A program made the translations under genes and the position numbers. 64,000 nucleotides of DNA, from positions 146,535 through 210,534 of the forward strand of contig NZ_FOLW01000008.1 of the NCBI RefSeq assembly GCF_900112475.1, in the 5' to 3' direction. Under the pieces are notes generated by a model. The model searched no databases. It had not been told where the DNA came from and saw only the letters and a program-made list of their open reading frames with translations. Shown in pieces: positions 7,162 through 18,038 of this stretch; positions within the stretch are counted from its first letter, which is position 1, and every line of letters begins with the position of its first letter. Source of the DNA: Pragia fontium DSM 5563 = ATCC 49100 (GTDB lineage Bacteria > Pseudomonadota > Gammaproteobacteria > Enterobacterales > Enterobacteriaceae).

Positions 7162-7803
7162 ATGCAAAACACATCAGGAAATGGGATAAGCACTCACGTT
7201 CCGCCAGAAGTTCAAGGTTGGAACTGGGGAGCATTCTTCCTTCATTTTATTTGGGGTATTGGCAACAATACCTTTATCGCATTCTTAATCTTCGTGCCGT
7301 TCGTCAATTTAGCCATGCCTTTTATACTTGGCGCTAAAGGTAATGAATGGGCGTGGCGCAATCGTCACTGGGCCAGTATTGAAGAATTCAAACGCGTCCA
7401 ACGCTTATGGTCCCGCTGGGCTATTGGCATCTTTATTACCATCACTCTATTTTTTGCCCTGCTCTTTACCACAATATATTGGGCGGTGACGTCCGCCTTA
7501 AAAAGCTCAGAGATTTATCAGCAAAGCGTGATTTTAGTAAAGTCTAATCCATCCGCTATGCAAGCCCTAGGCTCCCCGATTTCTACCGGTACTCCAAGAG
7601 GTAATATTTCGGTCAACGGAGACTTCGGTGAAGCAAAAATCAGCTTTAGTATTGAAGGGAGCAAAACCAGTGGTATTCTCTACGTCTCCGCAGAGAAAGA
7701 ATGGGGCACCTGGCAGATGCATTATAATAAACTCAGACTGGATAATTCCGGTGAAATTATCGATCTGCTAACGACAGAACAAGAATCCCAGCCTGACCTG
7801 TAA
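7162..7803 (+). CDS. Hypothetical inner-membrane protein with two predicted TM helices and a soluble C-terminal domain
   Basis: 213 aa. N-terminal GWNWGAFFLHFIWGIGNNTF / GAKGNEWAWRNRHW hydrophobic module. No equivalent in the E. coli pflA-ycaD interval. Confidence 0.5.
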   Translation: MQNTSGNGISTHVPPEVQGWNWGAFFLHFIWGIGNNTFIAFLIFVPFVNLAMPFILGAKGNEWAWRNRHWASIEEFKRVQRLWSRWAIGIFITITLFFALLFTTIYWAVTSALKSSEIYQQSVILVKSNPSAMQALGSPISTGTPRGNISVNGDFGEAKISFSIEGSKTSGILYVSAEKEWGTWQMHYNKLRLDNSGEIIDLLTTEQESQPDL

Positions 7804-7850: not shown

Positions 7851-8255
7851 ATGACTATTAGCTATAAAAACGATGCTCTCCTTACGCCAGAAATCGTGAT
7901 TGCTCTCTATCGTAAATGTTCCCTTGGTGAAAGACGCCCGGTTGATAAGCCTGAGGTGTTTAAAAAAATGATCGATAATTCCAACCTAATCATTACCGCT
8001 TGGGATGGCAGTAAATTGGTTGGCATTGCCCGCAGCCTGAGTGATTTTAGCTACGTAACCTATCTGGCTGATTTGGCGGTTGATGAAAGCTACCAGAAGC
8101 AAGGTATCGGGAAACAGTTAATGAGAGAAATGCAGAAATGCACACCGGCAGGCTGTAAAATTGTGTTACTGGCAGCACCAACGGCAAACGATTATTACCC
8201 TGCCCTTGGGTTTGAACATAATCCAAGAGCCTGGATATTAGATAGCCCCCTGTAA
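7851..8255 (+). CDS. GNAT-family N-acetyltransferase
   Basis: 134 aa. Q/RxxGxG/A-like acetyl-CoA motif QKQGIGKQLM, which is typical of the GNAT fold. Confidence 0.7.
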   Translation: MTISYKNDALLTPEIVIALYRKCSLGERRPVDKPEVFKKMIDNSNLIITAWDGSKLVGIARSLSDFSYVTYLADLAVDESYQKQGIGKQLMREMQKCTPAGCKIVLLAAPTANDYYPALGFEHNPRAWILDSPL

Positions 8256-8258
8256 TGA

Positions 8259-9404
8259 CTACTGCATTGCTAAAGGGTTGTGGTGGCGATCGGCCTTACT
8301 GAACAGCATCGCCATAAATATAACCGCAGCAACGGCAATAACGATAAACAATTGCCGATCTGAATAGTACTGCATTAAAGCAGCTGTTAGCGCAGGTCCC
8401 GCCAAGCTTCCTACCGTATAGCTTAGTAATAATGTTTGATTCATCGCAACCAGCTCATCCGGAGCGGCTTTTTCACAAGCCCATGCCATGGCTATCGGAT
8501 AAAGGGTAAAACCGGCTAATCCCAACATAAAGAGTGCTGGAGCCAACGAATAGCTATTCAATACCGCCAGTGAACTCATAATGATAGCGAACACCTGAAT
8601 ACGTAGAACAAATAACCGGCCATAGCGATCGGCCATGCGGCCCATTGGCAATTGTCCCATAATACCGGCGCAAACCATAAGTGCCATCCAATACCCTACA
8701 TCCGCATCCTGATATCCACTATGGGCAAGATATAACGGCAATAAACCGTACAGTGACCCCAGCACAACACCAGAAATCACACAGCCATTAATGCCCAACC
8801 GAGCATCACGACGCTTTAACATCCCCCAAATATGCTGCTGCTTACCTTCAGCCTTTGGCTTTTCGAAACGGGCAAATAATAACGGTAGAATGGCCGCCAG
8901 CAATATTGCAATAACCCAAGGTAAAACACTGCTCAGTAACGTAGGCACCACGCCCAACAACAGTTGACCGAACAGCGTTCCGGCGTAATAAACCACCATA
9001 TAAGCCGCCAGCAATTGTCCACGGACTTTAATGGTACCGCTGCGTAATAACGCACTTTCCACCACTACCCAGATAATTGCACAGGCGATACCGGCGATCA
9101 GACGCCATAACGTCCAGCTCATAAAGCTGACCGAGATACCCAGTAACAACGTGGCTACGGTAAATAAAATGCAGGCATAATGGTAAGTACGATTAAAACC
9201 AAATCTGTTAATACAAAAACCAGCAACTAATGTTCCCACCAAATTGCCAGTAAAATACGATGAGCTAACTACACCGATTTGCCAGGTAGACAAGGCGTCA
9301 TGAATTAACCAAAGGGGAACCAGCGTATTTAATACCGCCATTGATGTGGTAAATAACAGTAGCCCAGCCAACAGTAACAGCACAGGGCGAGTAAACGCAG
9401 ACAT
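8259..9404 (-). CDS. ycaD: MFS transporter
   Basis: 381 aa with 12 predicted TM helices. Position and orientation next to the pfl locus match E. coli ycaD. Confidence 0.8.
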
Positions 9405-9623
9405 TGTTTTGCCAAACGGGTGAGACCAATAATGATGCGCATCATCCCACTACGATATTAAAAGTCAATCTGCAAAATGACAGCAAATGAATTAATCATC
9501 ATGGTTTCATACTCGAACCATTTATTTCCATAAAATACAAATAGTTAAAATTTAATTGTTCATTTATTTTTTTAGTTTTTCTGGTTATAAAAAAACGATT
9601 AACGCTATACAAACAATATAAAA

Positions 9624-9650
9624 GCGGTACCAATAATATATTGGTACCGC
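9624..9650 (-). terminator. Perfect 11-bp stem-loop (gcggtaccaat / attggtaccgc) about 130 bp downstream of the usher-like gene; likely a bidirectional terminator
   Basis: Stem 9624-9634 and 9640-9650 with loop aatat. A-rich on the plus strand to the left, giving a U-tract for the minus-strand transcript. Confidence 0.6.
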
Positions 9651-9779
9651 ATCATAATAACTCGCGAAATAACCCTATAATAACGACAGGTTATATTTTT
9701 CTTTCTATAGTCAGGCTGATTCTAAAGTTAATCATCATTCTAACTCCCCCCTGTTTTCAGACCACAGTCATTCAAATAG

Positions 9780-12095
9780 CTATTGTCCAAAATTGAGTGC
9801 TGCATCAATAGCCGCTCTTCGGTTAGATTGTTGCTGATGGTTTTCCTTAGATTCACGTTCAGAGCCGTTGTTTATCGCCTCCTGTACCTGGCTATCAAAA
9901 TTAATCGCTTCATCAATGGCTGACTGTCTGATGAGTTGCTGTTGCTTGTTATCCGGCGTGAATTTCGCAAAAACAACAGCACCGCGAGTGGGAATCACAC
10001 TCGTGGACGACTCTGTCATGGTCATGCCTTCAGGTAAATCAAAGTCATCAACGCTAAGCGTATTTTCCCGATAAGGTGTCAGATAGCTCACCAACGCATA
10101 ACCCCGGCTATCCGTCGTCACACCAAACTGATTATTGACGCCAACATCTTTGGTAGAGGTAACCTCAACCAATCCCATGGTTTCTCCCAGACTTTGCCCC
10201 AACGTAATACCACCGGCATGAGCCATTAAACTTCCTTCAATATCGGCATTATATTGGGTTACTGCACTGCCTTTAGTCGCCCCTAAACTCAATTGACCCG
10301 CATTATGTTGATATTGAATGCTGCCATTCACATTATCACCGTAGCGCGAATCATGCTGGGTGCCTAGCTGATAGCCAAGACTATAATTCTCCAGGGCGTA
10401 ACCACTTATGCCTATGTCACGGTTCTGTGAGCCATTATGGGCAGCCGTTTGCGAATAGTTCAGCTTCATGTTGCTTGAATCAAATATATTCAATGGAATA
10501 CTGACTCTCACATTAATTTCAGATGTCGTGTCCTGATCGGGATAGCGGTTATAGCTCGCATATACGTTATAATTGATATCATTAATCTCATCTGAAAAAC
10601 CAAACGAAATGCTGGTTTCTTTATTATGATCTTGTTTCCGATAGGTCTCCTGATAAAGCGTGAGGTAAACGTTAGCTTTTTCAGTTAAATTTCGGTTTAA
10701 GTTAACTTCCCAGCGATAGCGTTTTTCAGCCTCTTCCTCACCATCCCACACCCCGTCATCCCAATCCCACCACCAGGTTTTTTGCTGAGTAATGGCCCGA
10801 TCAAAATCCCGATAACGTTGCCCGGCAGGATAATAACGAAACTGCGTCATTAAACTGGTTTCAGCACTAAAGAAGGCTTTAGCATAGCGAAGCCGATACA
10901 TACCGCCCTTATCGTCTTCTGCTCGCCGAGGCTGCTGGGCTTTACTCTGACTATAGTCAATGGAAATCGCTCCCCATTGATTCAGATTTTTACCCAAGCC
11001 TATCGCATGGTTTTGGTAAATATCAGATTTAATGCCACCGCCAAACAATGAAATATTACCGGGTAGTCCCCAGTTAGCGGCCACTTGAGTAAATCGGGGT
11101 TCTTCATCATCACTCCCCCGCCAGGGTTTATAAGTCCCGACAATAGTTTGATAGCTAAAATTTCCCGAGTGAACCAAATTCGGCAGCGCCGTATAAGGTA
11201 GAGAACGGACGGTTTCGGTCCCGTTACTCTCTTTAATGGTCATCTCCAAATCACCATCAACTTCTGGCGGAGAAACGTCACGAAGGATAAAAGCCCCAGG
11301 CGGAACAAAGGTTTGATAAATAACGGTGCCATTCTGCCTTACGGTTATCTCCGCATTACTGTTAGCAAAACCTTTTAACCATGGCGAAAAAGAACGCCAA
11401 CTGTCCGGCAGCATTTTTTCATCGGTTTTTAACATGATTCCGCGAAACGGCAGGCTTTTAAACAGGTTGGATGGCGTATTGGCATCGCCCAATACCAAAC
11501 TGCTGCCGATGCTTTTGATATCCCTGGCTAAATACATATCACGACTATAAGAGCCATGGTCACCATAGGCATCACGAAAAATGGTAGAATGATGGCGTAG
11601 TCGCCAAGCATCCAGATTTAAGCCAGACTCTAGTTCTACATAAGTGCTGCTGTTATTCTCCTGATACTGAAAAGCCTCCCCTTCATTAAAAGCATAGTTG
11701 AGATGATAATTAACAAATAAAGCATTAACTCCATCACTCCAGCTACTTATATCAATTTTATCTTTTTGTGACTCAATGAGCGTCTGGGGAATATCAACTA
11801 TCGTTAGTGAAACAGAGGCGTCGTTGAAATAAAAAATATTCAAACGATCCAGTTCATCCTTAGGCAGGCAGCCTGAAGGCGTAAAGTTAAATTTAGATGA
11901 GAATGCCGGTTTCACGCCCCAAGTCTCTAGCAATGAACGCTTCAGACAAGGAAGATCATCCGTAATCTCTAATTCTATTTGCCCCATATCAAGGTTATTG
12001 ACGATAACCCACTGATTATTCATTTGAGCCTTAACAGAACCCATAGAAATAGTGAGCCAACAACTGGCAAAAGCGATTGAACGAGTTAGCTGCAT
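9780..12095 (-). CDS. Fimbrial usher (PapC/FimD family) outer-membrane protein, orphan and lacking the second C-terminal domain
   Basis: 771 aa with a signal peptide. The N-terminal domain motif …DLPCLKRSLLETWGVKP…GCLPKDELDRL…LTIVDIPQ resembles the FimD NTD. The C-terminal region GYALVSYLTPYRENTLSVDDFDL…SVIPTRGAVVFAKF closely resembles FimD CTD1 (GYAVVPYATEYRENRVALD…VVPTRGAIVRAEF). The protein then ends in a Q-rich tail where CTD2 would be. Confidence 0.7.
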   Translation of the reverse strand: MQLTRSIAFASCWLTISMGSVKAQMNNQWVIVNNLDMGQIELEITDDLPCLKRSLLETWGVKPAFSSKFNFTPSGCLPKDELDRLNIFYFNDASVSLTIVDIPQTLIESQKDKIDISSWSDGVNALFVNYHLNYAFNEGEAFQYQENNSSTYVELESGLNLDAWRLRHHSTIFRDAYGDHGSYSRDMYLARDIKSIGSSLVLGDANTPSNLFKSLPFRGIMLKTDEKMLPDSWRSFSPWLKGFANSNAEITVRQNGTVIYQTFVPPGAFILRDVSPPEVDGDLEMTIKESNGTETVRSLPYTALPNLVHSGNFSYQTIVGTYKPWRGSDDEEPRFTQVAANWGLPGNISLFGGGIKSDIYQNHAIGLGKNLNQWGAISIDYSQSKAQQPRRAEDDKGGMYRLRYAKAFFSAETSLMTQFRYYPAGQRYRDFDRAITQQKTWWWDWDDGVWDGEEEAEKRYRWEVNLNRNLTEKANVYLTLYQETYRKQDHNKETSISFGFSDEINDINYNVYASYNRYPDQDTTSEINVRVSIPLNIFDSSNMKLNYSQTAAHNGSQNRDIGISGYALENYSLGYQLGTQHDSRYGDNVNGSIQYQHNAGQLSLGATKGSAVTQYNADIEGSLMAHAGGITLGQSLGETMGLVEVTSTKDVGVNNQFGVTTDSRGYALVSYLTPYRENTLSVDDFDLPEGMTMTESSTSVIPTRGAVVFAKFTPDNKQQQLIRQSAIDEAINFDSQVQEAINNGSERESKENHQQQSNRRAAIDAALNFGQ

Positions 12096-12107
12096 ACTGG
12101 ATACACA

Positions 12108-12141
12108 AATAGAGATACCGTCATAAATGACGGTATCTCTA
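12108..12141. promoter_or_regulatory. 34-bp perfect palindrome (atagagataccgtcat aa atgacggtatctctat) between the DUF1090 gene and the usher-like gene
   Basis: Exact dyad symmetry. It could act as a terminator or attenuator hairpin, or as an operator for a dimeric regulator. Confidence 0.5.
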
Positions 12142-12167
12142 TTATATTAAGTTAAAATATAAGCGAA

Positions 12168-12620
12168 TTAACGCTTAGATGCCGCTAACTCTGCACGAGC
12201 AGCTTTCAGCTCTTGCTGAACTGCCTGCACTTCAGCTTGTTTCTCTGCTAATTTAGCCTGGTACTTAGCCACTTTCTTAGCATCACCCTTCGCTTTAGCT
12301 TTGTTCAAATCAGCTTTAACTTCCGCTACATCGCTTTTCTTATCAGCCAATTTTTCCTCTAACTTTTGAACTTTCTTCTCTAAGCTTTGAGTTACATTGC
12401 CGCTGTTATTGTTATCAACACAGTAAGCATTCACGTTAGCCAATGCTCTTTTCAGAGAATTAACTTTATTGATATTACCGTATTGCTGAGCGATGCGAAT
12501 TTGGTTTTCAAGAGCAGCGCGCTTAGCATTACAATTTTCGTATGCGCTAGCCATTGTGGAGTAACCAGCAGTCAGTGCCAACACCAATGGAATTAAACTT
12601 AATTTCTTAATGCTCTTCAT
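12168..12620 (-). CDS. DUF1090 (YqjC-like) periplasmic coiled-coil protein
   Basis: 150 aa. Signal peptide MKSIKKLSLIPLVLALTAGYSTMASA, two Cys residues (ENCNAK… / AYCVDNN) and a K/A/E-rich coiled-coil tail, the pattern seen in E. coli YqjC. Confidence 0.65.
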   Translation of the reverse strand: MKSIKKLSLIPLVLALTAGYSTMASAYENCNAKRAALENQIRIAQQYGNINKVNSLKRALANVNAYCVDNNNSGNVTQSLEKKVQKLEEKLADKKSDVAEVKADLNKAKAKGDAKKVAKYQAKLAEKQAEVQAVQQELKAARAELAASKR

Positions 12621-12781
12621 AACAAACTCCTTGTTTTACATATTCAATTTATTGAATAAAAAGGTTTATTCCTCTCTATTCGTCTGAGACTTAACAATAC
12701 TGGTTATATGTCAGTCTCATCAACGCTCCGGCTTCCTAAAGGTCGTGTAGGAACGGATGATAAAGTTGTAGTCCCTGTCAT

Positions 12782-15700
12782 TTACAGCATCAAAAAACAT
12801 TCAAGCTCTTGTTTTAAAATAATTATCTCATTATAGACTTCAGAAACCCTAGCTGCGGTTAACGGTGCTTCCTGTTGTTCCAAGCGCTGACATTGACTAA
12901 TTAACGACTTTGCCCCAATTAACTGCAATCCACCTCGAATGCGATGTAAAGTTTGACGAACTAATTCATCATCTATCTGGGCACTCTGCTGAGCGGCGGA
13001 TAACGTGGCAATATCCTGAGATAACGTCTCTGTCAATAGCTGAATAAATTGCTGGCGAGTCTCCACATTACTTAATTCAATCAGTAATTCACTGGGATCA
13101 AAATGAGAAAAGGTAGGTTCTGGCTCCTGCGATAGCTCGCTCAATTTATCGGCCAGCGCATTCAGACTAATCGGTTTGAATAAGCAATCATTCATTCCAG
13201 ACGCCAGACAACTGTCATGGATGGTTTTTTGGGCGTTCGCCGTTAAACCCCATATTGTCAGCGCCTTAGTTTTCTGCTTTTCTTCCAACTGACGGATATA
13301 GCGAGTCAGGGTATAACCATCCATCTCTGGCATAGAACAGTCGGTAATTAATAAATCAACCTTATGGGTTTTTAACATCGCCAGCGCATTATGGCCATTT
13401 ACGGCGCACTCGACATGATGCCCTAAATATTGAAGCTGCTTCATCAGTAATAAACGGCTGGCTGGGTGATCTTCGGCAATAAGAATGTTCAGGCTGGCGA
13501 CAGGTAATTTACTTTTTTCAGAAGCCTGGCTAACCAGACCGGTATTTGCTAAACGCGATAAATATAGAATAACGCTGACTTCCGTACCGATACCAATCTG
13601 ACTGCTTAAAGTAATATCGCCCCCCATCATCTGTGCCAGACTTCGACAAATATACAGCCCTAATCCGGTTCCCTGATATGAACGCTCATCCCCTTGAACA
13701 AAAGGCTGAAATAATCGTGATTGGGTCTGTTCATCAATACCGCACCCCGTATCTTGAATCACAATATGCAGCTCAAGCTGTTCATGATTGCTATTGATTA
13801 AATGCGCCTGTAATACTATTCGCCCACGTTCAGTAAATTTAATGGCATTACTGAGTAAATTAGACAAGATTTGCTTAAAGCGCATAGGATCGATTAATAC
13901 ATTATCGATAATGTCAGCATCAATCTCTAACTGAAACTGCAACTCTTTCTGGCGAGCGACCCCTTCAAACATCATCGCAACGGATTCAATAAGCTGACGT
14001 ATATTGGCCCGTTCAGGACGCAGCATAAATTTATCCGATTCTATTTTTGATATATCTAATATGTCGCCAATTAATGTTAATAGCGATAGCGCTGAATCAT
14101 GAGCAATTCTGATCGAATCCCAATCGGCAGATTCATTGGTTTTTCGCCGTAATAACAGTTCAAGCATGCCGATAATCGCCCCTAACGGCGTACGAATCTC
14201 ATGACTCATGGTGGCTAAAAATGTACTTTTTGCCCGGCTCGCCTTATCGGCAATCTCTTTGGCATGCTTAAGTTCAATAATCAGCTTTTCTCTTTCCGTG
14301 ACATCAATCCAGCCACCGATATAACCCCAAACATCCCCGGAAGGTGATAAAAACAACTGGTTCCACTGATGGATAGTGTGAAGTTGATCATGCAGATTAA
14401 CCTGCTTAGTAATAAAAACGGGCTCTTGAAAATTAACCGAAAGAGGAACCGACTTCATTCCATCTAATCCGTCCGGCAATAGCGTAAAGTCCTGCCCAAT
14501 AGTCTGCTCTTTTGTCAAATTCAACTCGGTTAAGAAACGCTCGTTAACGTAAGTTAACCCTCCCTGATAATCCATAATATAAACAGGGAGAGGAATGGCA
14601 TCTAACAACGTTTGTCGAATATGATTGCCCTCCCTTTTAATCGCATGATACTGGCGATAGACATAAACGATGACGATAAATAACAGTATGATTAAAATAC
14701 CGTTAAGCACCGAAGATGCCAGATTAAATCTGGATGGGCTAACCGCAGAAGCCTCATTAATGGTGTTAAATAAATTGGTGTTGGTATACCAATTGCTGAT
14801 AACCGCATGTAAATCTTCTGGTGGAATATTTAAAATCGCTTTGTCTAAAATAGTGACCAAAGGATAATTCTTTGGTGATACTGCCAAAACAAAACTGGCA
14901 GGATCGCGGTCAAGGCTAGCAATAATCTCCAGACTATCGGCATAAAATCGCGGCAACATAAAGTCAGCGCTAATGAGAGGCAGAACCATCATATCCACCT
15001 TCTCATCTTTTACCCAATCTAGCCCAATACGCAACGTTGAAGCCCGTATAATCCGACTCCCTGGATAGGCATCGGTTAAGTCATTATCTAACGGATAGCC
15101 ATCCATAATGACAATAGTCTTAGGCACCGACTGTCGACTAAATCTATTCTTCTTCCCCACCAATACTCTGGAGTTAAGAAAAAATGATCGGGTTGCTAAT
15201 AAATCATTAGGCAGTGCAGAATCTAAGGTGATGCCACCAATAACAATATTGCTGCCGGTTCGTGCGTACTCCAATGCTTTCTGCGATGATTGGAGTTTAG
15301 TTACCTTGAACTTTAGTCCGGTACGGATAGTGATTGCTGTCAGTATATCGGCAACTACGCCATGAAGTTTCCCTTTAGCATCAAAGAAATAGAGGGGAGG
15401 TATCTCTTCACCAATAACAACCTGCACCTCTTTGTTTTCATCTATCCACTTGCGCTCAAGTGAGGTAACAAACGGATGGCTATCGCTTAAAGATAAAGGA
15501 ATGCCTCCATTCCAACGACGTTGAATATCCACCCGAATGTTTTCAGGAATAACGCTTAAGGTTTTATTAATAATATTGATTAGTTTTTTATTATCATTTA
15601 TCGCTGCAAATGATAATCCGGGCAAATTAAAATCCAGTAATGGATACATCGTCAGATTATTCAAATTAGATTGATTAATCAGATATTGCACCGAATTCTC

Positions 15701-16339
15701 TTCACCAATAAAAATATCAACATGTTTAAAAGAGAGTTCCTCTAATGCCCTACGATCGGAATTAAAGGTAATAAAATTAGCATTAGGATAATATTGCCGA
15801 ATTGCCTCTACGTTGGCATAGACAGGTGATAATACAACATTAACCTTTTCTCTATTTTCTCTGTCAGGATTTAAATTAACAACAATTGATGGCACATTAG
15901 TAATATAGGGACGACTTAATAGTAAGTTATACGTTTCTTTTTCGTCATAGCCTGCATTAATAATCAAATCAATTTTCCCACTATTTAAATCCGCTATCAT
16001 ATCTGCGTAATTTAAGTAATAGAAAATCTTTGGCTTAACGTTTAAATTCCAGGCTATTAACCCCAAATAGTCAGCACTGACACCGGTAAAATCCCGATGT
16101 TCAGTGGTAATATCATAAGGTGGGAAGTTATAAGCATAAACGCCGACCTTCATGATGCGTTTTTTATGTAACCAAGCCCATTCATCCGGCGTTAGCTCCA
16201 TATCAAACAAAGTGATTTGCGTTCGTCCCAACAGGCTTAACTCACTAAAAGCCGCCGTGGAACCTTGAGGTTTATCATTTGCCAGAACAACCAGCGAATT
16301 GATAAATATCAATAATAACAAAACGATACGATGCAGCAT
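12782..16339 (-). CDS. evgS: Hybrid sensor histidine kinase of the BvgS/EvgS type (two periplasmic solute-binding domains, TM, PAS, HisKA-HATPase, REC, HPt)
   Basis: 1185 aa. H-box SHEIRTPL, G-box IQDTGCGI…GTGLGL, receiver …LITDCSMPEMDG, and a C-terminal HPt with a His in TLHRIRGG. The large N-terminal periplasmic region ends at a TM segment (ILIILLFIVIVYVY). Confidence 0.85.
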   Translation of the reverse strand: MLHRIVLLLLIFINSLVVLANDKPQGSTAAFSELSLLGRTQITLFDMELTPDEWAWLHKKRIMKVGVYAYNFPPYDITTEHRDFTGVSADYLGLIAWNLNVKPKIFYYLNYADMIADLNSGKIDLIINAGYDEKETYNLLLSRPYITNVPSIVVNLNPDRENREKVNVVLSPVYANVEAIRQYYPNANFITFNSDRRALEELSFKHVDIFIGEENSVQYLINQSNLNNLTMYPLLDFNLPGLSFAAINDNKKLINIINKTLSVIPENIRVDIQRRWNGGIPLSLSDSHPFVTSLERKWIDENKEVQVVIGEEIPPLYFFDAKGKLHGVVADILTAITIRTGLKFKVTKLQSSQKALEYARTGSNIVIGGITLDSALPNDLLATRSFFLNSRVLVGKKNRFSRQSVPKTIVIMDGYPLDNDLTDAYPGSRIIRASTLRIGLDWVKDEKVDMMVLPLISADFMLPRFYADSLEIIASLDRDPASFVLAVSPKNYPLVTILDKAILNIPPEDLHAVISNWYTNTNLFNTINEASAVSPSRFNLASSVLNGILIILLFIVIVYVYRQYHAIKREGNHIRQTLLDAIPLPVYIMDYQGGLTYVNERFLTELNLTKEQTIGQDFTLLPDGLDGMKSVPLSVNFQEPVFITKQVNLHDQLHTIHQWNQLFLSPSGDVWGYIGGWIDVTEREKLIIELKHAKEIADKASRAKSTFLATMSHEIRTPLGAIIGMLELLLRRKTNESADWDSIRIAHDSALSLLTLIGDILDISKIESDKFMLRPERANIRQLIESVAMMFEGVARQKELQFQLEIDADIIDNVLIDPMRFKQILSNLLSNAIKFTERGRIVLQAHLINSNHEQLELHIVIQDTGCGIDEQTQSRLFQPFVQGDERSYQGTGLGLYICRSLAQMMGGDITLSSQIGIGTEVSVILYLSRLANTGLVSQASEKSKLPVASLNILIAEDHPASRLLLMKQLQYLGHHVECAVNGHNALAMLKTHKVDLLITDCSMPEMDGYTLTRYIRQLEEKQKTKALTIWGLTANAQKTIHDSCLASGMNDCLFKPISLNALADKLSELSQEPEPTFSHFDPSELLIELSNVETRQQFIQLLTETLSQDIATLSAAQQSAQIDDELVRQTLHRIRGGLQLIGAKSLISQCQRLEQQEAPLTAARVSEVYNEIIILKQELECFLML

Positions 16340-16344
16340 TAGTA

Positions 16345-16971
16345 CTATCCCTGATACTCATTTTCCATAATTTTTTTCAGTTCATTGAGATCTGTGGTAT
16401 TGGTTTTTTCAAACAACCTAGACTTATAAGTACTAATGGTTTTATTGCTTAATAAAAGTAGGTCACCAATCTCTTTATTGGTTTTCCCTTCAATTAAATA
16501 GCGTAGTACGGCGATTTCACGATCGGACAGCTTCTCCATCATACTGATATTATTATGGTGAGAGGCATAGTAAATCAGTCGCTTTAAACAAAAGGACGGA
16601 AAACAGCTATAGCCATCAATAACCTGCTGGCAAATTTGGCCTATCTGCTTTAAGTCATAATCTTTACTAACAAATCCATCAGCTCCTGCACGTAAAGCAC
16701 GTTCAGAATAAATCTCCGGATTTTGCCCGGTGAGAATAATCACCTTTATCTTTTCATTAAACTGTTTAATGCGGCTGAGAATTTCCATCCCATCCATAAC
16801 CGCCAAAGAAATGTCAAGAACAACAATTTCAACATCATGATCTTTAATAAAGCTCATTGCTTTAATACCATCAGTAACTGACTGAACAGAAAAATCATGA
16901 TTTGCTTCCAATACCGCTTTCAAGGCAAAACAAATCGCGGGATGGTCATCTACAATCAACACATTAACCAT
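16345..16971 (-). CDS. evgA: NarL/FixJ-family response regulator (REC + LuxR HTH), EvgA/BvgA-like
   Basis: MVNVLIVDDHP…VVLDISL receiver. C-terminal LSDREIAVLRYLIEGKTNKEIGDLLLLSNKTISTYKSRL helix-turn-helix. A GGAG SD sits before the second Met (16971). A 5-bp gap to the kinase gene suggests an operon. Confidence 0.85.
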   Translation of the reverse strand: MVNVLIVDDHPAICFALKAVLEANHDFSVQSVTDGIKAMSFIKDHDVEIVVLDISLAVMDGMEILSRIKQFNEKIKVIILTGQNPEIYSERALRAGADGFVSKDYDLKQIGQICQQVIDGYSCFPSFCLKRLIYYASHHNNISMMEKLSDREIAVLRYLIEGKTNKEIGDLLLLSNKTISTYKSRLFEKTNTTDLNELKKIMENEYQG

Positions 16972-17396
16972 CGCAATCTCCATATTATGCGCTGTTTATA
17001 ATAATAATGTTAATTGATGAAAAATAAATACTCAATAAGTAATTATTTATTTTACCCACCAGAAAAGACAAATAATGATAAATGAAATAAAAAGAGACTT
17101 TCAATGAAATAATGAAATCTAAATATCAAATTAAAGTAAAAAGCAACAAATTAAAAATGTTGCTTAGTTTTTTACCTATCATGGAAAAAGTGACATTAAA
17201 CAATTTCAAATAGTGAACGATTAAGCCCTATATCGGGCATCTGGAAAAATGATATTTAATACATTGAGTTAGCTAACAGTTCTTTGCCAAAACAGGATCA
17301 TGATAAGAATAATATGTTGCGGTTGAATATATAAAACCAAGTCAGCCAGTCGAAATTAACTCACATGAGAAGGCGAAATAATCAACCACCTAAACA

Positions 17397-18038
17397 CTAG
17401 AAAAAGATATCTTTATTGATAACGGTAGGATGCAGGCGAGCTTGCCAATCATTTAACGTCACTCGGGTTAATCGAGCTATCCCCTGATAAAACGGATGTT
17501 CAGTCTTTTCCTCCAACAGCGCCACAAAACGATGGCTCCACGGTAGCAAATGTTCACCCAGTAACGTCCCGATTTGCTCCGGCTGATTCTCAGCTAACCA
17601 TGCCGCCAACATCAACAATAAACCAATATGATCTTCCGGTTCACGATGTTGCTGTTGTACTTCAATCCCTAATGTTGACTGCCAGCGACGTAAATCAAGG
17701 GTAGAATCGCCAAAAATAACACTCTCACGATCTAAATAAACTGAGCCCCAAGGCGGTGCCGGTAACGAATCAGGGCCAATAAACAGACGCTGAAACTCTT
17801 CAGATAATAATGGGCGGCTTCCCTCGGCTAAACCTAAATTAATTAAAACCGCTGCCTGCTGAATATCAATCCTCGCTCCACAAGGCCACTCATCAACCCA
17901 GCCATCATGGTTCAACCATGCTAGCAAAGAAAGCACATCTTGCTGTTCAGGAGGATAATACAATAAAGCCCCCAACATCCGGCCAGTTAATGAAATATCA
18001 TCAATATCTGCCAAACTCGGCATAGGAAGAGAACGCAT
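17397..18038 (-). CDS. dmsD: Tat proofreading chaperone DmsD (TorD family)
   Basis: 213 aa. …PPWGSVYLDRESVIFGDSTLDLRRW…EPEDHIG… is collinear with E. coli DmsD. Confidence 0.85.
   Translation of the reverse strand: MRSLPMPSLADIDDISLTGRMLGALLYYPPEQQDVLSLLAWLNHDGWVDEWPCGARIDIQQAAVLINLGLAEGSRPLLSEEFQRLFIGPDSLPAPPWGSVYLDRESVIFGDSTLDLRRWQSTLGIEVQQQHREPEDHIGLLLMLAAWLAENQPEQIGTLLGEHLLPWSHRFVALLEEKTEHPFYQGIARLTRVTLNDWQARLHPTVINKDIFF

Follow-up and report, generated by a model that had tools for sequence, protein, structure and literature searches.

Here we describe a four-gene cassette of Pragia fontium DSM 5563 = ATCC 49100, located in a 64,000-nucleotide stretch of contig NZ_FOLW01000008.1 (positions 146,535 to 210,534; this whole stretch is hereafter the 64-kb window, and coordinates are given within it). 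Between ycaD and dmsD, four co-directional genes on the minus strand encode, in this order, a response regulator, a hybrid sensor kinase, a secreted DUF1090 protein and a shortened homologue of the fimbrial ushers, an arrangement that had been proposed from the letters alone (the sequence-only reading) and that Pfam and NCBIfam annotation bears out. Our preferred interpretation, to which we give about an even chance, is that the last two genes form a phosphorelay-controlled operon in which the DUF1090 protein, made in excess, is the chaperone-independent client of a gated pore derived from an usher.

The short usher (771 residues; 12095..9780, minus strand) covers the Pfam Usher profile (PF00577) end to end (1-549/549, E = 6e-143) and is 100% identical to a Pragia fontium database entry. 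It consists of a signal peptide (residues 1-23), the core of the N-terminal domain (NTD; residues 24-~110, 12026-11766), a 24-strand barrel (residues 125-626, 11723-10218) with a plug (residues ~223-303, 11429-11187) that matches the Caf1A plug structure 3fcg, the first C-terminal domain (CTD1; residues 629-716, 10211-9948), which aligns to FimD 666-746, and a Pragia-specific helical C-terminal tail (residues 717-771, 9947-9783). An AlphaFold2 (AF2) model with a predicted local distance difference test score (pLDDT) of 77 shows the expected domain order and a C-terminal helical hairpin, and its top Foldseek match is FimD (3rfz, E = 8e-58). Homology to the classical ushers FimD, PapC and LpfC of the gamma-fimbrial clade amounts to 28-35% identity, and the barrel with its plug, an NTD core with a conserved Cys pair and CTD1 are shared with them.

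Two parts of a classical usher are missing, however. In phmmer comparisons with solved structures, residues 46-713 align to mature FimD 59-746, which spans the NTD core, barrel, plug and CTD1. The N-terminal tail of the NTD (~35 residues) is absent, mature FimD 1-~31 having no counterpart, and PapC_N is matched only from profile position 33 on (33-146); this loss had been overlooked in the sequence-only reading. At the other end, the FimD alignment stops at residue 746, so that the last ~85 residues of FimD, the second C-terminal domain (CTD2), are without counterpart, and there is no Pfam match to PapC_C (PF13953, CTD2) in the usher. A CTD2 hidden Markov model (HMM) built from 51 canonical ushers, which detects FimD (9e-29) and a canonical control (2e-15), found no match in the usher or in any frame 3' of its stop codon. 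Both gaps are plain in direct alignment with FimD, LpfC and a Proteus usher. The earlier description of an usher with N-terminal and CTD1 regions but no CTD2 is therefore upheld by Pfam, the FimD alignment and the CTD2 HMM alike, and the alignment to the FimD domain boundaries indicates that CTD2 is truly absent, not divergent.

The N-terminal tail of FimD and PapC contacts chaperone–subunit complexes, and removal of the N- or C-terminal periplasmic domains of an usher abolishes pilus assembly. All soluble usher domains (NTD, plug and C-terminal domains) have been found to be required for assembly (PMC3394950). The short usher also differs from classical ushers in having no cognate PapD-like chaperone and no Ig-like pilins: no chaperone or pilin open reading frame was found in the whole 64-kb window (best E at least 0.19 with filters off), as had been stated from the sequence. 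Because its docking elements are lost and no chaperone accompanies it, the short usher cannot assemble a classical pilus, and on this point too the sequence-only reading holds. In classical operons the position upstream of the usher belongs to a subunit gene; here that position is taken by the gene for the all-helical DUF1090 protein.

The shortened architecture is a family trait. The 16 closest database proteins (706-771 residues; from Pragia, Enterobacillus, Serratia, Enterobacter, Mixta and metagenomes) are all without PF13953, and the next-best matches after them are canonical ushers of 836-885 residues that carry it. In alignment, 16 of 16 homologues stop 4-60 residues past the CTD1 motif VVPTxGAIxFxRF, and the tails beyond it are not conserved. 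When 1.84 billion cluster representatives were searched with the family profile, about a dozen short-type clusters scored 549-1058 bits; below them came a gap in score and then over 1,400 clusters of canonical ushers. Compared with the short-family profile, the canonical clusters have ~36-50 extra N-terminal and ~80-100 extra C-terminal residues. The ratio of nonsynonymous to synonymous substitution rates (dN/dS), determined for both the usher and the DUF1090 protein in 16 close pairs, lies between 0.03 and 0.27, and only one pair exceeds 0.16. By mean Kimura distance (0.83 for the whole usher), the plug (0.49) and CTD1 (0.55) are its most conserved parts, followed by the barrel (0.95), and the NTD (1.27) evolves fastest. 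On these substitution patterns, the short usher is a conserved family under purifying selection, not a decaying gene.

The C-terminal tails vary. That of the Pragia usher, the longest among the 16 aligned database homologues, is a predicted helical hairpin (pLDDT 57-74) with an internal repeat, SAIDEAINFDSQ / AAIDAALNFGQ. Tails measure 0-58 residues overall and 0-35 residues in the other members, some of them strongly acidic (L001, L006, L028); for Pseudomonas, a motif-based cut gave up to 77 residues and was probably misplaced there. An acidic tail substituting for CTD2 was considered and ruled out, as the tails are unconserved and mostly neutral.

The DUF1090 protein (150 residues; 12620..12168, minus strand; PF06476, 72.2 bits against a cutoff of 24.4) begins with a Sec signal peptide (residues 1-26). 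Among its orthologues, which all have a Sec-type signal peptide, are basic (isoelectric point 9-9.8) and display a YGN turn and a GD turn, Cys30 and Cys67 are invariant in 26 aligned sequences. The AF2 model contains helices 24-46, 50-67, 74-111 and 114-149, arranged as two helical hairpins, of which the long second one has a pLDDT above 90. A fold search with this model against the PDB gave only non-significant, generic helical matches (such as 14-3-3 and BAR domains, all with E of at least 0.65). Proteins linked to a short usher form a distinct subfamily of 139-153 residues. The E. coli protein YqjC belongs to the same Pfam family (35% identity, E = 2e-17) and shares the signal peptide, the Cys pair and the GD-turn hairpin; it differs in being shorter (122 residues) and in lying in the mzrA-yqjCDEK neighbourhood without an usher. 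The literature treats the DUF1090/YqjC family as uncharacterised.

The association of the two proteins extends well beyond Pragia. A family-profile scan of one genome per species yielded 60 loci, which we annotated with HMMs of our own; the E. coli fim operon served as positive control. The short usher is intact in 53 of the 60, and the DUF1090 gene lies immediately upstream of it in 56; a response regulator and a hybrid kinase are encoded upstream on the same strand in 53. CTD2 was found in none of the ~60 short ushers by the custom HMM, which detected FimD and a full-length usher at the Limnobaculum allomyrinae locus (L017) as controls. More than 50 genomes keep an intact homologue, with 33-50% identity, and the module occurs in Enterobacterales, in Pseudomonas and Ventosimonas, in Stenotrophomonas and in Paraburkholderia. 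In six further genomes the order response regulator, kinase, DUF1090, usher is identical, with different flanking genes each time, and the chromosomal neighbours of the cassette differ in each of the seven loci whose flanks were examined. A search for flanking direct repeats gave only short, imperfect two-copy matches of the kind expected by chance; tRNA and integrase genes were not searched for. Judged from sequence comparison, the module is conserved and horizontally scattered. In Pseudomonas the DUF1090–usher pair stands alone, without a two-component system, and for this reason we regard the pair as the core unit.

Individual loci depart from this pattern. Two copies of the DUF1090 gene with its upstream region stand in tandem before the usher in Tenebrionibacter intestinalis (L028, 6556-7918); the first copy has an N and a frameshift, and could be an assembly artefact or a recent duplication. 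Enterobacter mori (L004/L005, 1-3179) has a second, divergently oriented EvgS/EvgA-like pair directly upstream of the cassette, and therefore two paralogous BvgS-family phosphorelays side by side. Seven copies are frameshifted, split or truncated as assembled (L043, L054, L055, L062, L065, L067 and L068). The several frame breaks of L054 and L055 could be sequencing or assembly errors and not true pseudogenes. The broken copies include those of the host-restricted or pseudogene-rich Apirhabdus, whose usher is interrupted by ~1.9 kb, Candidatus Pantoea bathycoeliae and Erwinia tracheiphila, and the module appears to be dispensable in such niches.

The two upstream genes encode a phosphorelay. 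The response regulator (212 residues; 16983..16345, minus strand) is of the NarL/FixJ type, with Pfam Response_reg and GerE domains, and is FimZ/EvgA-like; 53 of the 60 related loci have a homologue of its gene in the same place. The hybrid sensor kinase (1185 residues; 16339..12782, minus strand) has every domain expected of the BvgS/EvgS family by Pfam: two periplasmic SBP_bac_3 (Venus flytrap) stretches, PAS_8, HisKA, HATPase_c, REC and Hpt. Scores nevertheless fall far under the NCBIfam equivalog cutoffs, both for the regulator (best matches FimZ, 161.4 bits against 271, and EvgA, 131.4 against 251) and for the kinase (EvgS, 449.7 against 1995). By these profile scores the two proteins resemble the BvgS/EvgS family and are not orthologues of EvgS, EvgA or FimZ. 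As in BvgAS and EvgAS, which share the kinase architecture and a NarL-type regulator, the likely target operon is adjacent. Bordetella bvgAS adjoins fhaB-fimBCD, and E. coli evgAS adjoins emrKY.

Right after the kinase stop codon and upstream of the DUF1090 gene lies a tandem direct repeat, GACTACA-N14-TCCTACA (12746..12773, minus strand), with CTACA cores 21 bp apart; it is the only match in the 64-kb window. Of 64 loci, 42 have paired CTACA cores exactly 21 bp apart at about -140/-119 relative to the DUF1090 ATG, with the consensus GGACTACA-N13-TYCCTACA, against a background of 0.12 CTACA per 200 nt. We consider the box pair a putative site at which the adjacent regulator would bind, within the putative promoter region of the DUF1090–usher pair, and the pair would then be what the phosphorelay controls. 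The box core resembles EvgA half-sites: TTCYTACA-like half-sites lie between emrK and evgA of E. coli, a region that contains TTCTTACG-nn-TGTAGGAT. The boxes here are direct repeats 21 bp apart, whereas the EvgA site is an 18-bp inverted repeat.

The surroundings of the boxes differ between groups of loci. In Serratia-type loci (L010, L012, L013, L016, L056 and others), the CTACA boxes are followed by a conserved -10-like TATTCTTTG that lies ~60-90 nt before the DUF1090 ATG; after it, the putative 5' leader holds a CAGGAAGGGG...CCCC stem-loop. The Stenotrophomonas and Paraburkholderia loci (L049-L052, L059 and L063) are without CTACA boxes and share the motif CTAGAATC/CTCGAATC ~100 nt upstream of the DUF1090 gene, which in the Stenotrophomonas-type L049, L051 and L052 forms the palindrome GATTCTAGAATC; the regulators of these copies may have diverged in DNA specificity. 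In Pragia, an AT-rich palindrome, TATTCAAT-AA-ATTGAATA (12641-12658, minus strand), stands before the ribosome-binding site, ~20 nt ahead of the DUF1090 start codon. Its role could be that of an operator or of an RNA hairpin, and it is not obviously conserved in other genera.

A second element separates the DUF1090 and usher genes. The palindrome noted there from the sequence is real and has perfect arms, but measures 36 nt (12108..12143, minus strand) and not 34 nt (12108-12141): two 17-nt arms (12108-12124 and 12127-12143) flank a 2-nt spacer. The stem-loop ends 12 nt before the usher ATG, where no Shine-Dalgarno sequence is evident, and the 72-nt gap as a whole folds at -25.3 kcal/mol. In intact related loci, the DUF1090–usher gap of 53-126 nt holds a strong stem-loop, usually GC-rich and with a T-run, although the stem-loop sequences are unrelated between genera; at the Limnobaculum locus L017 (7556-7980) a structured insertion has widened the gap to 423 nt. 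Neither the hairpin nor the leader matched a known RNA family when 9000-17600 was scanned with Rfam. Stable stem-loops likewise follow the first, abundant gene and precede the assembly gene at the fimA 3' end, where the E. coli record annotates the small RNA FimR2, and in the papA hairpin; the gene upstream of the Pragia hairpin, unlike those, does not encode a pilin. The Pragia hairpin may terminate transcription, stabilise the mRNA or occlude the ribosome-binding site of the usher gene. Most economically, it would be an attenuator or 3' stabiliser that sets the DUF1090 protein far above the usher. An intrinsic-terminator-like hairpin, GCGGTACCAATA..TATTGGTACCGC followed by TTTTAT (9624..9650, minus strand), ends the operon.

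Taken as a mechanism, our preferred interpretation would run as follows. The BvgS/EvgS-family phosphorelay would act through the tandem CTACA boxes to turn on a promoter just 3' of the kinase gene, and this promoter would drive a two-gene operon, DUF1090 and then the short usher, with the terminator-like intercistronic hairpin making the DUF1090 protein far more abundant than the usher. The derived usher, which has kept the gated 24-strand pore, plug and CTD1 and lost both docking elements for chaperone–subunit complexes (N-terminal tail and CTD2), would function without donor-strand-exchange pilus assembly and without a PapD-like chaperone. Its dedicated client would be the secreted, basic, coiled-coil DUF1090 protein, presumably stapled by a disulfide, which would most likely pass through or lodge in the usher pore and be displayed at the surface upon sensor activation. 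The strongest conservation lies in the plug and CTD1, which points to a gated pore that still handles a periplasmic macromolecule, and we favour the DUF1090 protein as that client because it is the only candidate invariably encoded with the usher and would be made in excess. The sequence-only reading had listed export of the DUF1090 protein as a non-canonical substrate among several options. The comparative data favour it over the others, because the pair is near-invariant even where the two-component system is absent.

The P-usher CupB3 of Pseudomonas aeruginosa offers a partial precedent for an usher that handles a non-pilin protein. According to Ruer and colleagues (2008), CupB3 reportedly carries an extra N-terminal POTRA-like domain; the short usher, by contrast, is shortened at its N terminus, not extended, and has no chaperone gene in the window or adjacent to it in related loci. 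CupB3, described as a specialised 'P-usher', secretes the TpsA-like non-pilin CupB5 and sits in a full chaperone–usher (CU) operon with a pilin, an adhesin and two chaperones, and secretion of CupB5 needs the chaperone CupB4 (PMC3031594). The more specific claim for the Pragia pair, that it constitutes an unrecognised, phosphorelay-switched path for the export or display of an all-alpha coiled-coil protein across the outer membrane, without a chaperone or donor-strand exchange, is one that we advance tentatively and with some doubt.

Several observations weigh against export. No protein of the module is better conserved than the DUF1090 protein, whose mean Kimura distance is 0.50 (usher, 0.83). 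Major fimbrial subunits exposed at the cell surface are usually more variable than the cognate usher, and in this respect the DUF1090 protein is unlike them. The NTD, which recruits the substrate in canonical ushers, is the fastest-evolving part of the short usher (1.27). More distant DUF1090 proteins exist without an usher, as YqjC in E. coli and as a protein of Pseudomonas cavernae, and the fold must therefore have a periplasmic life of its own. An analysis of co-evolution from distance matrices (mirror-tree and partial correlation between the DUF1090 protein and the usher domains, controlled for the response regulator and kinase) detected nothing beyond shared ancestry, and no energy source or polymerisation mechanism for the export of a helical protein is evident.

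In the main rival explanation, the DUF1090 protein is not cargo and instead acts as an abundant periplasmic partner of the barrel, such as a gate-keeper, adaptor or tether. What the pore moves or senses would in that case be something else, or the two proteins together would signal the state of the envelope back to the BvgS-like kinase; CsgE on CsgG, LptE in LptD and helical accessory proteins of the CpxP/Spy type are possible analogies. Strong conservation of the DUF1090 protein, together with a barrel and NTD that are the least conserved parts, fits a periplasmic interaction better than a surface-exposed product. The stand-alone DUF1090 paralogues are periplasmic without ushers, the fold of paired helical hairpins is without significant structural relative, and the module is tied to a periplasm-sensing kinase in 53 of the 60 loci. 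On the other hand, the conserved terminator-like hairpin implies a large excess of the DUF1090 protein, which a 1:1 plug or cap would not need; no locus offers a third conserved gene for a candidate cargo; and the pair persists in Pseudomonas without the cognate kinase. We judge this explanation rather unlikely as a whole, although it is the one that competes most seriously with export of the DUF1090 protein.

A looser relationship, in which the two are independent, co-regulated envelope proteins, the barrel a porin or a phage- or colicin-receptor-like protein and the DUF1090 protein a stress-induced periplasmic protein, appears improbable. It would account for two exported envelope proteins under one promoter and for a YqjC that functions in E. 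coli without an usher, but not for a same-order adjacency that holds in 56 of the 60 loci across Enterobacterales, Pseudomonadales, Xanthomonadales and Burkholderiales and has outlasted repeated moves of the cassette. The plug and CTD1, the most conserved parts of the usher, would be superfluous in a passive porin or receptor. The sequence-only reading had raised a related possibility, a receptor-like barrel controlled by EvgAS. The conserved boxes support control by the neighbouring phosphorelay; the passive receptor is disfavoured because it leaves both the obligate coupling to DUF1090 and the conservation of the plug and CTD1 unexplained.

We hold it very improbable that the short usher assembles a classical fimbria with a chaperone and pilins encoded elsewhere, in a split operon. 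Such operons do lie nearby in a few genomes. In Limnobaculum allomyrinae (L017, 11363-16868), the short usher is followed, 1.2 kb downstream, by a canonical CU operon with a pilin, a chaperone, a full-length usher with CTD2 and an adhesin-like gene, and at two further loci a CU operon is found ~6 kb away. Chaperone genes are present in only these three of the 60 loci, however, each inside a separate, complete CU operon whose own full-length usher carries CTD2; the other 57 loci and the 64-kb window are without a nearby chaperone, and the N-terminal tail and CTD2 docking elements are absent from every member of the short family. No chaperone–pilin pair flanks the cassette as the other half of a split operon, either in the window or in related loci. 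The remaining option of the sequence-only reading, a degenerating remnant of a fimbrial operon, is refuted by the comparative data and has next to no probability left: although frameshifts or splits occur in some copies, chiefly those of host-restricted or pseudogene-rich lineages, the CTD2-less form is shared by 53 intact copies of 60 with the same shortened architecture, dN/dS is low, the partner gene and cis elements are conserved, and no vestige of CTD2 remains 3' of the usher.

The cassette is bounded by ycaD (9404..8259) and dmsD (18038..17397). Its GC content is ~40% overall, against ~46% in the flanking dms and ycaD genes, which is consistent with horizontal acquisition and, possibly, with H-NS silencing. 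A 413-bp intergenic stretch upstream of the regulator gene (16984-17396) has ~30% GC and is without the CTACA box pair. Beyond the cassette, two small genes on the plus strand lie between pflA and ycaD (7162-7803 and 7851-8255); they encode a 213-residue predicted membrane protein and a 134-residue open reading frame that is acetyltransferase-like by eye only.

The searchable literature on DUF1090, on YqjC and ushers, and on orphan or chaperone-independent ushers holds no description of this module, and we found no paper linking DUF1090 to ushers. A survey across E. coli reports no orphan ushers (PMC3559732). NCBI labels the short ushers generically as fimbrial ushers, and under that annotation their genes, in a family that spans dozens of genera, would be miscounted as fimbrial loci. 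Textbooks describe ushers as depending obligately on PapD-like chaperones and Ig-like subunits. Because the short ushers have shed the docking elements for these and yet remain intact, under purifying selection and coupled to DUF1090, we conclude that the usher pore has been re-used beyond fimbriae, and that the module is likely to be an undescribed, chaperone-independent use of it.

The module offers a handle on three subjects: the uncharacterised DUF1090/YqjC family, which has a member in E. coli; the regulatory output of the orphan BvgS/EvgS-type sensor that occurs in Serratia, Enterobacter, Pantoea, Erwinia, Pseudomonas and Stenotrophomonas; and the opening of a plug-gated usher barrel without a chaperone–adhesin complex. 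Translocation of the DUF1090 protein, if shown, could prove to be a new export route. If the DUF1090 protein is indeed exported, this would be the first function for the DUF1090/YqjC family and would add a second, non-fimbrial mode to the ushers.

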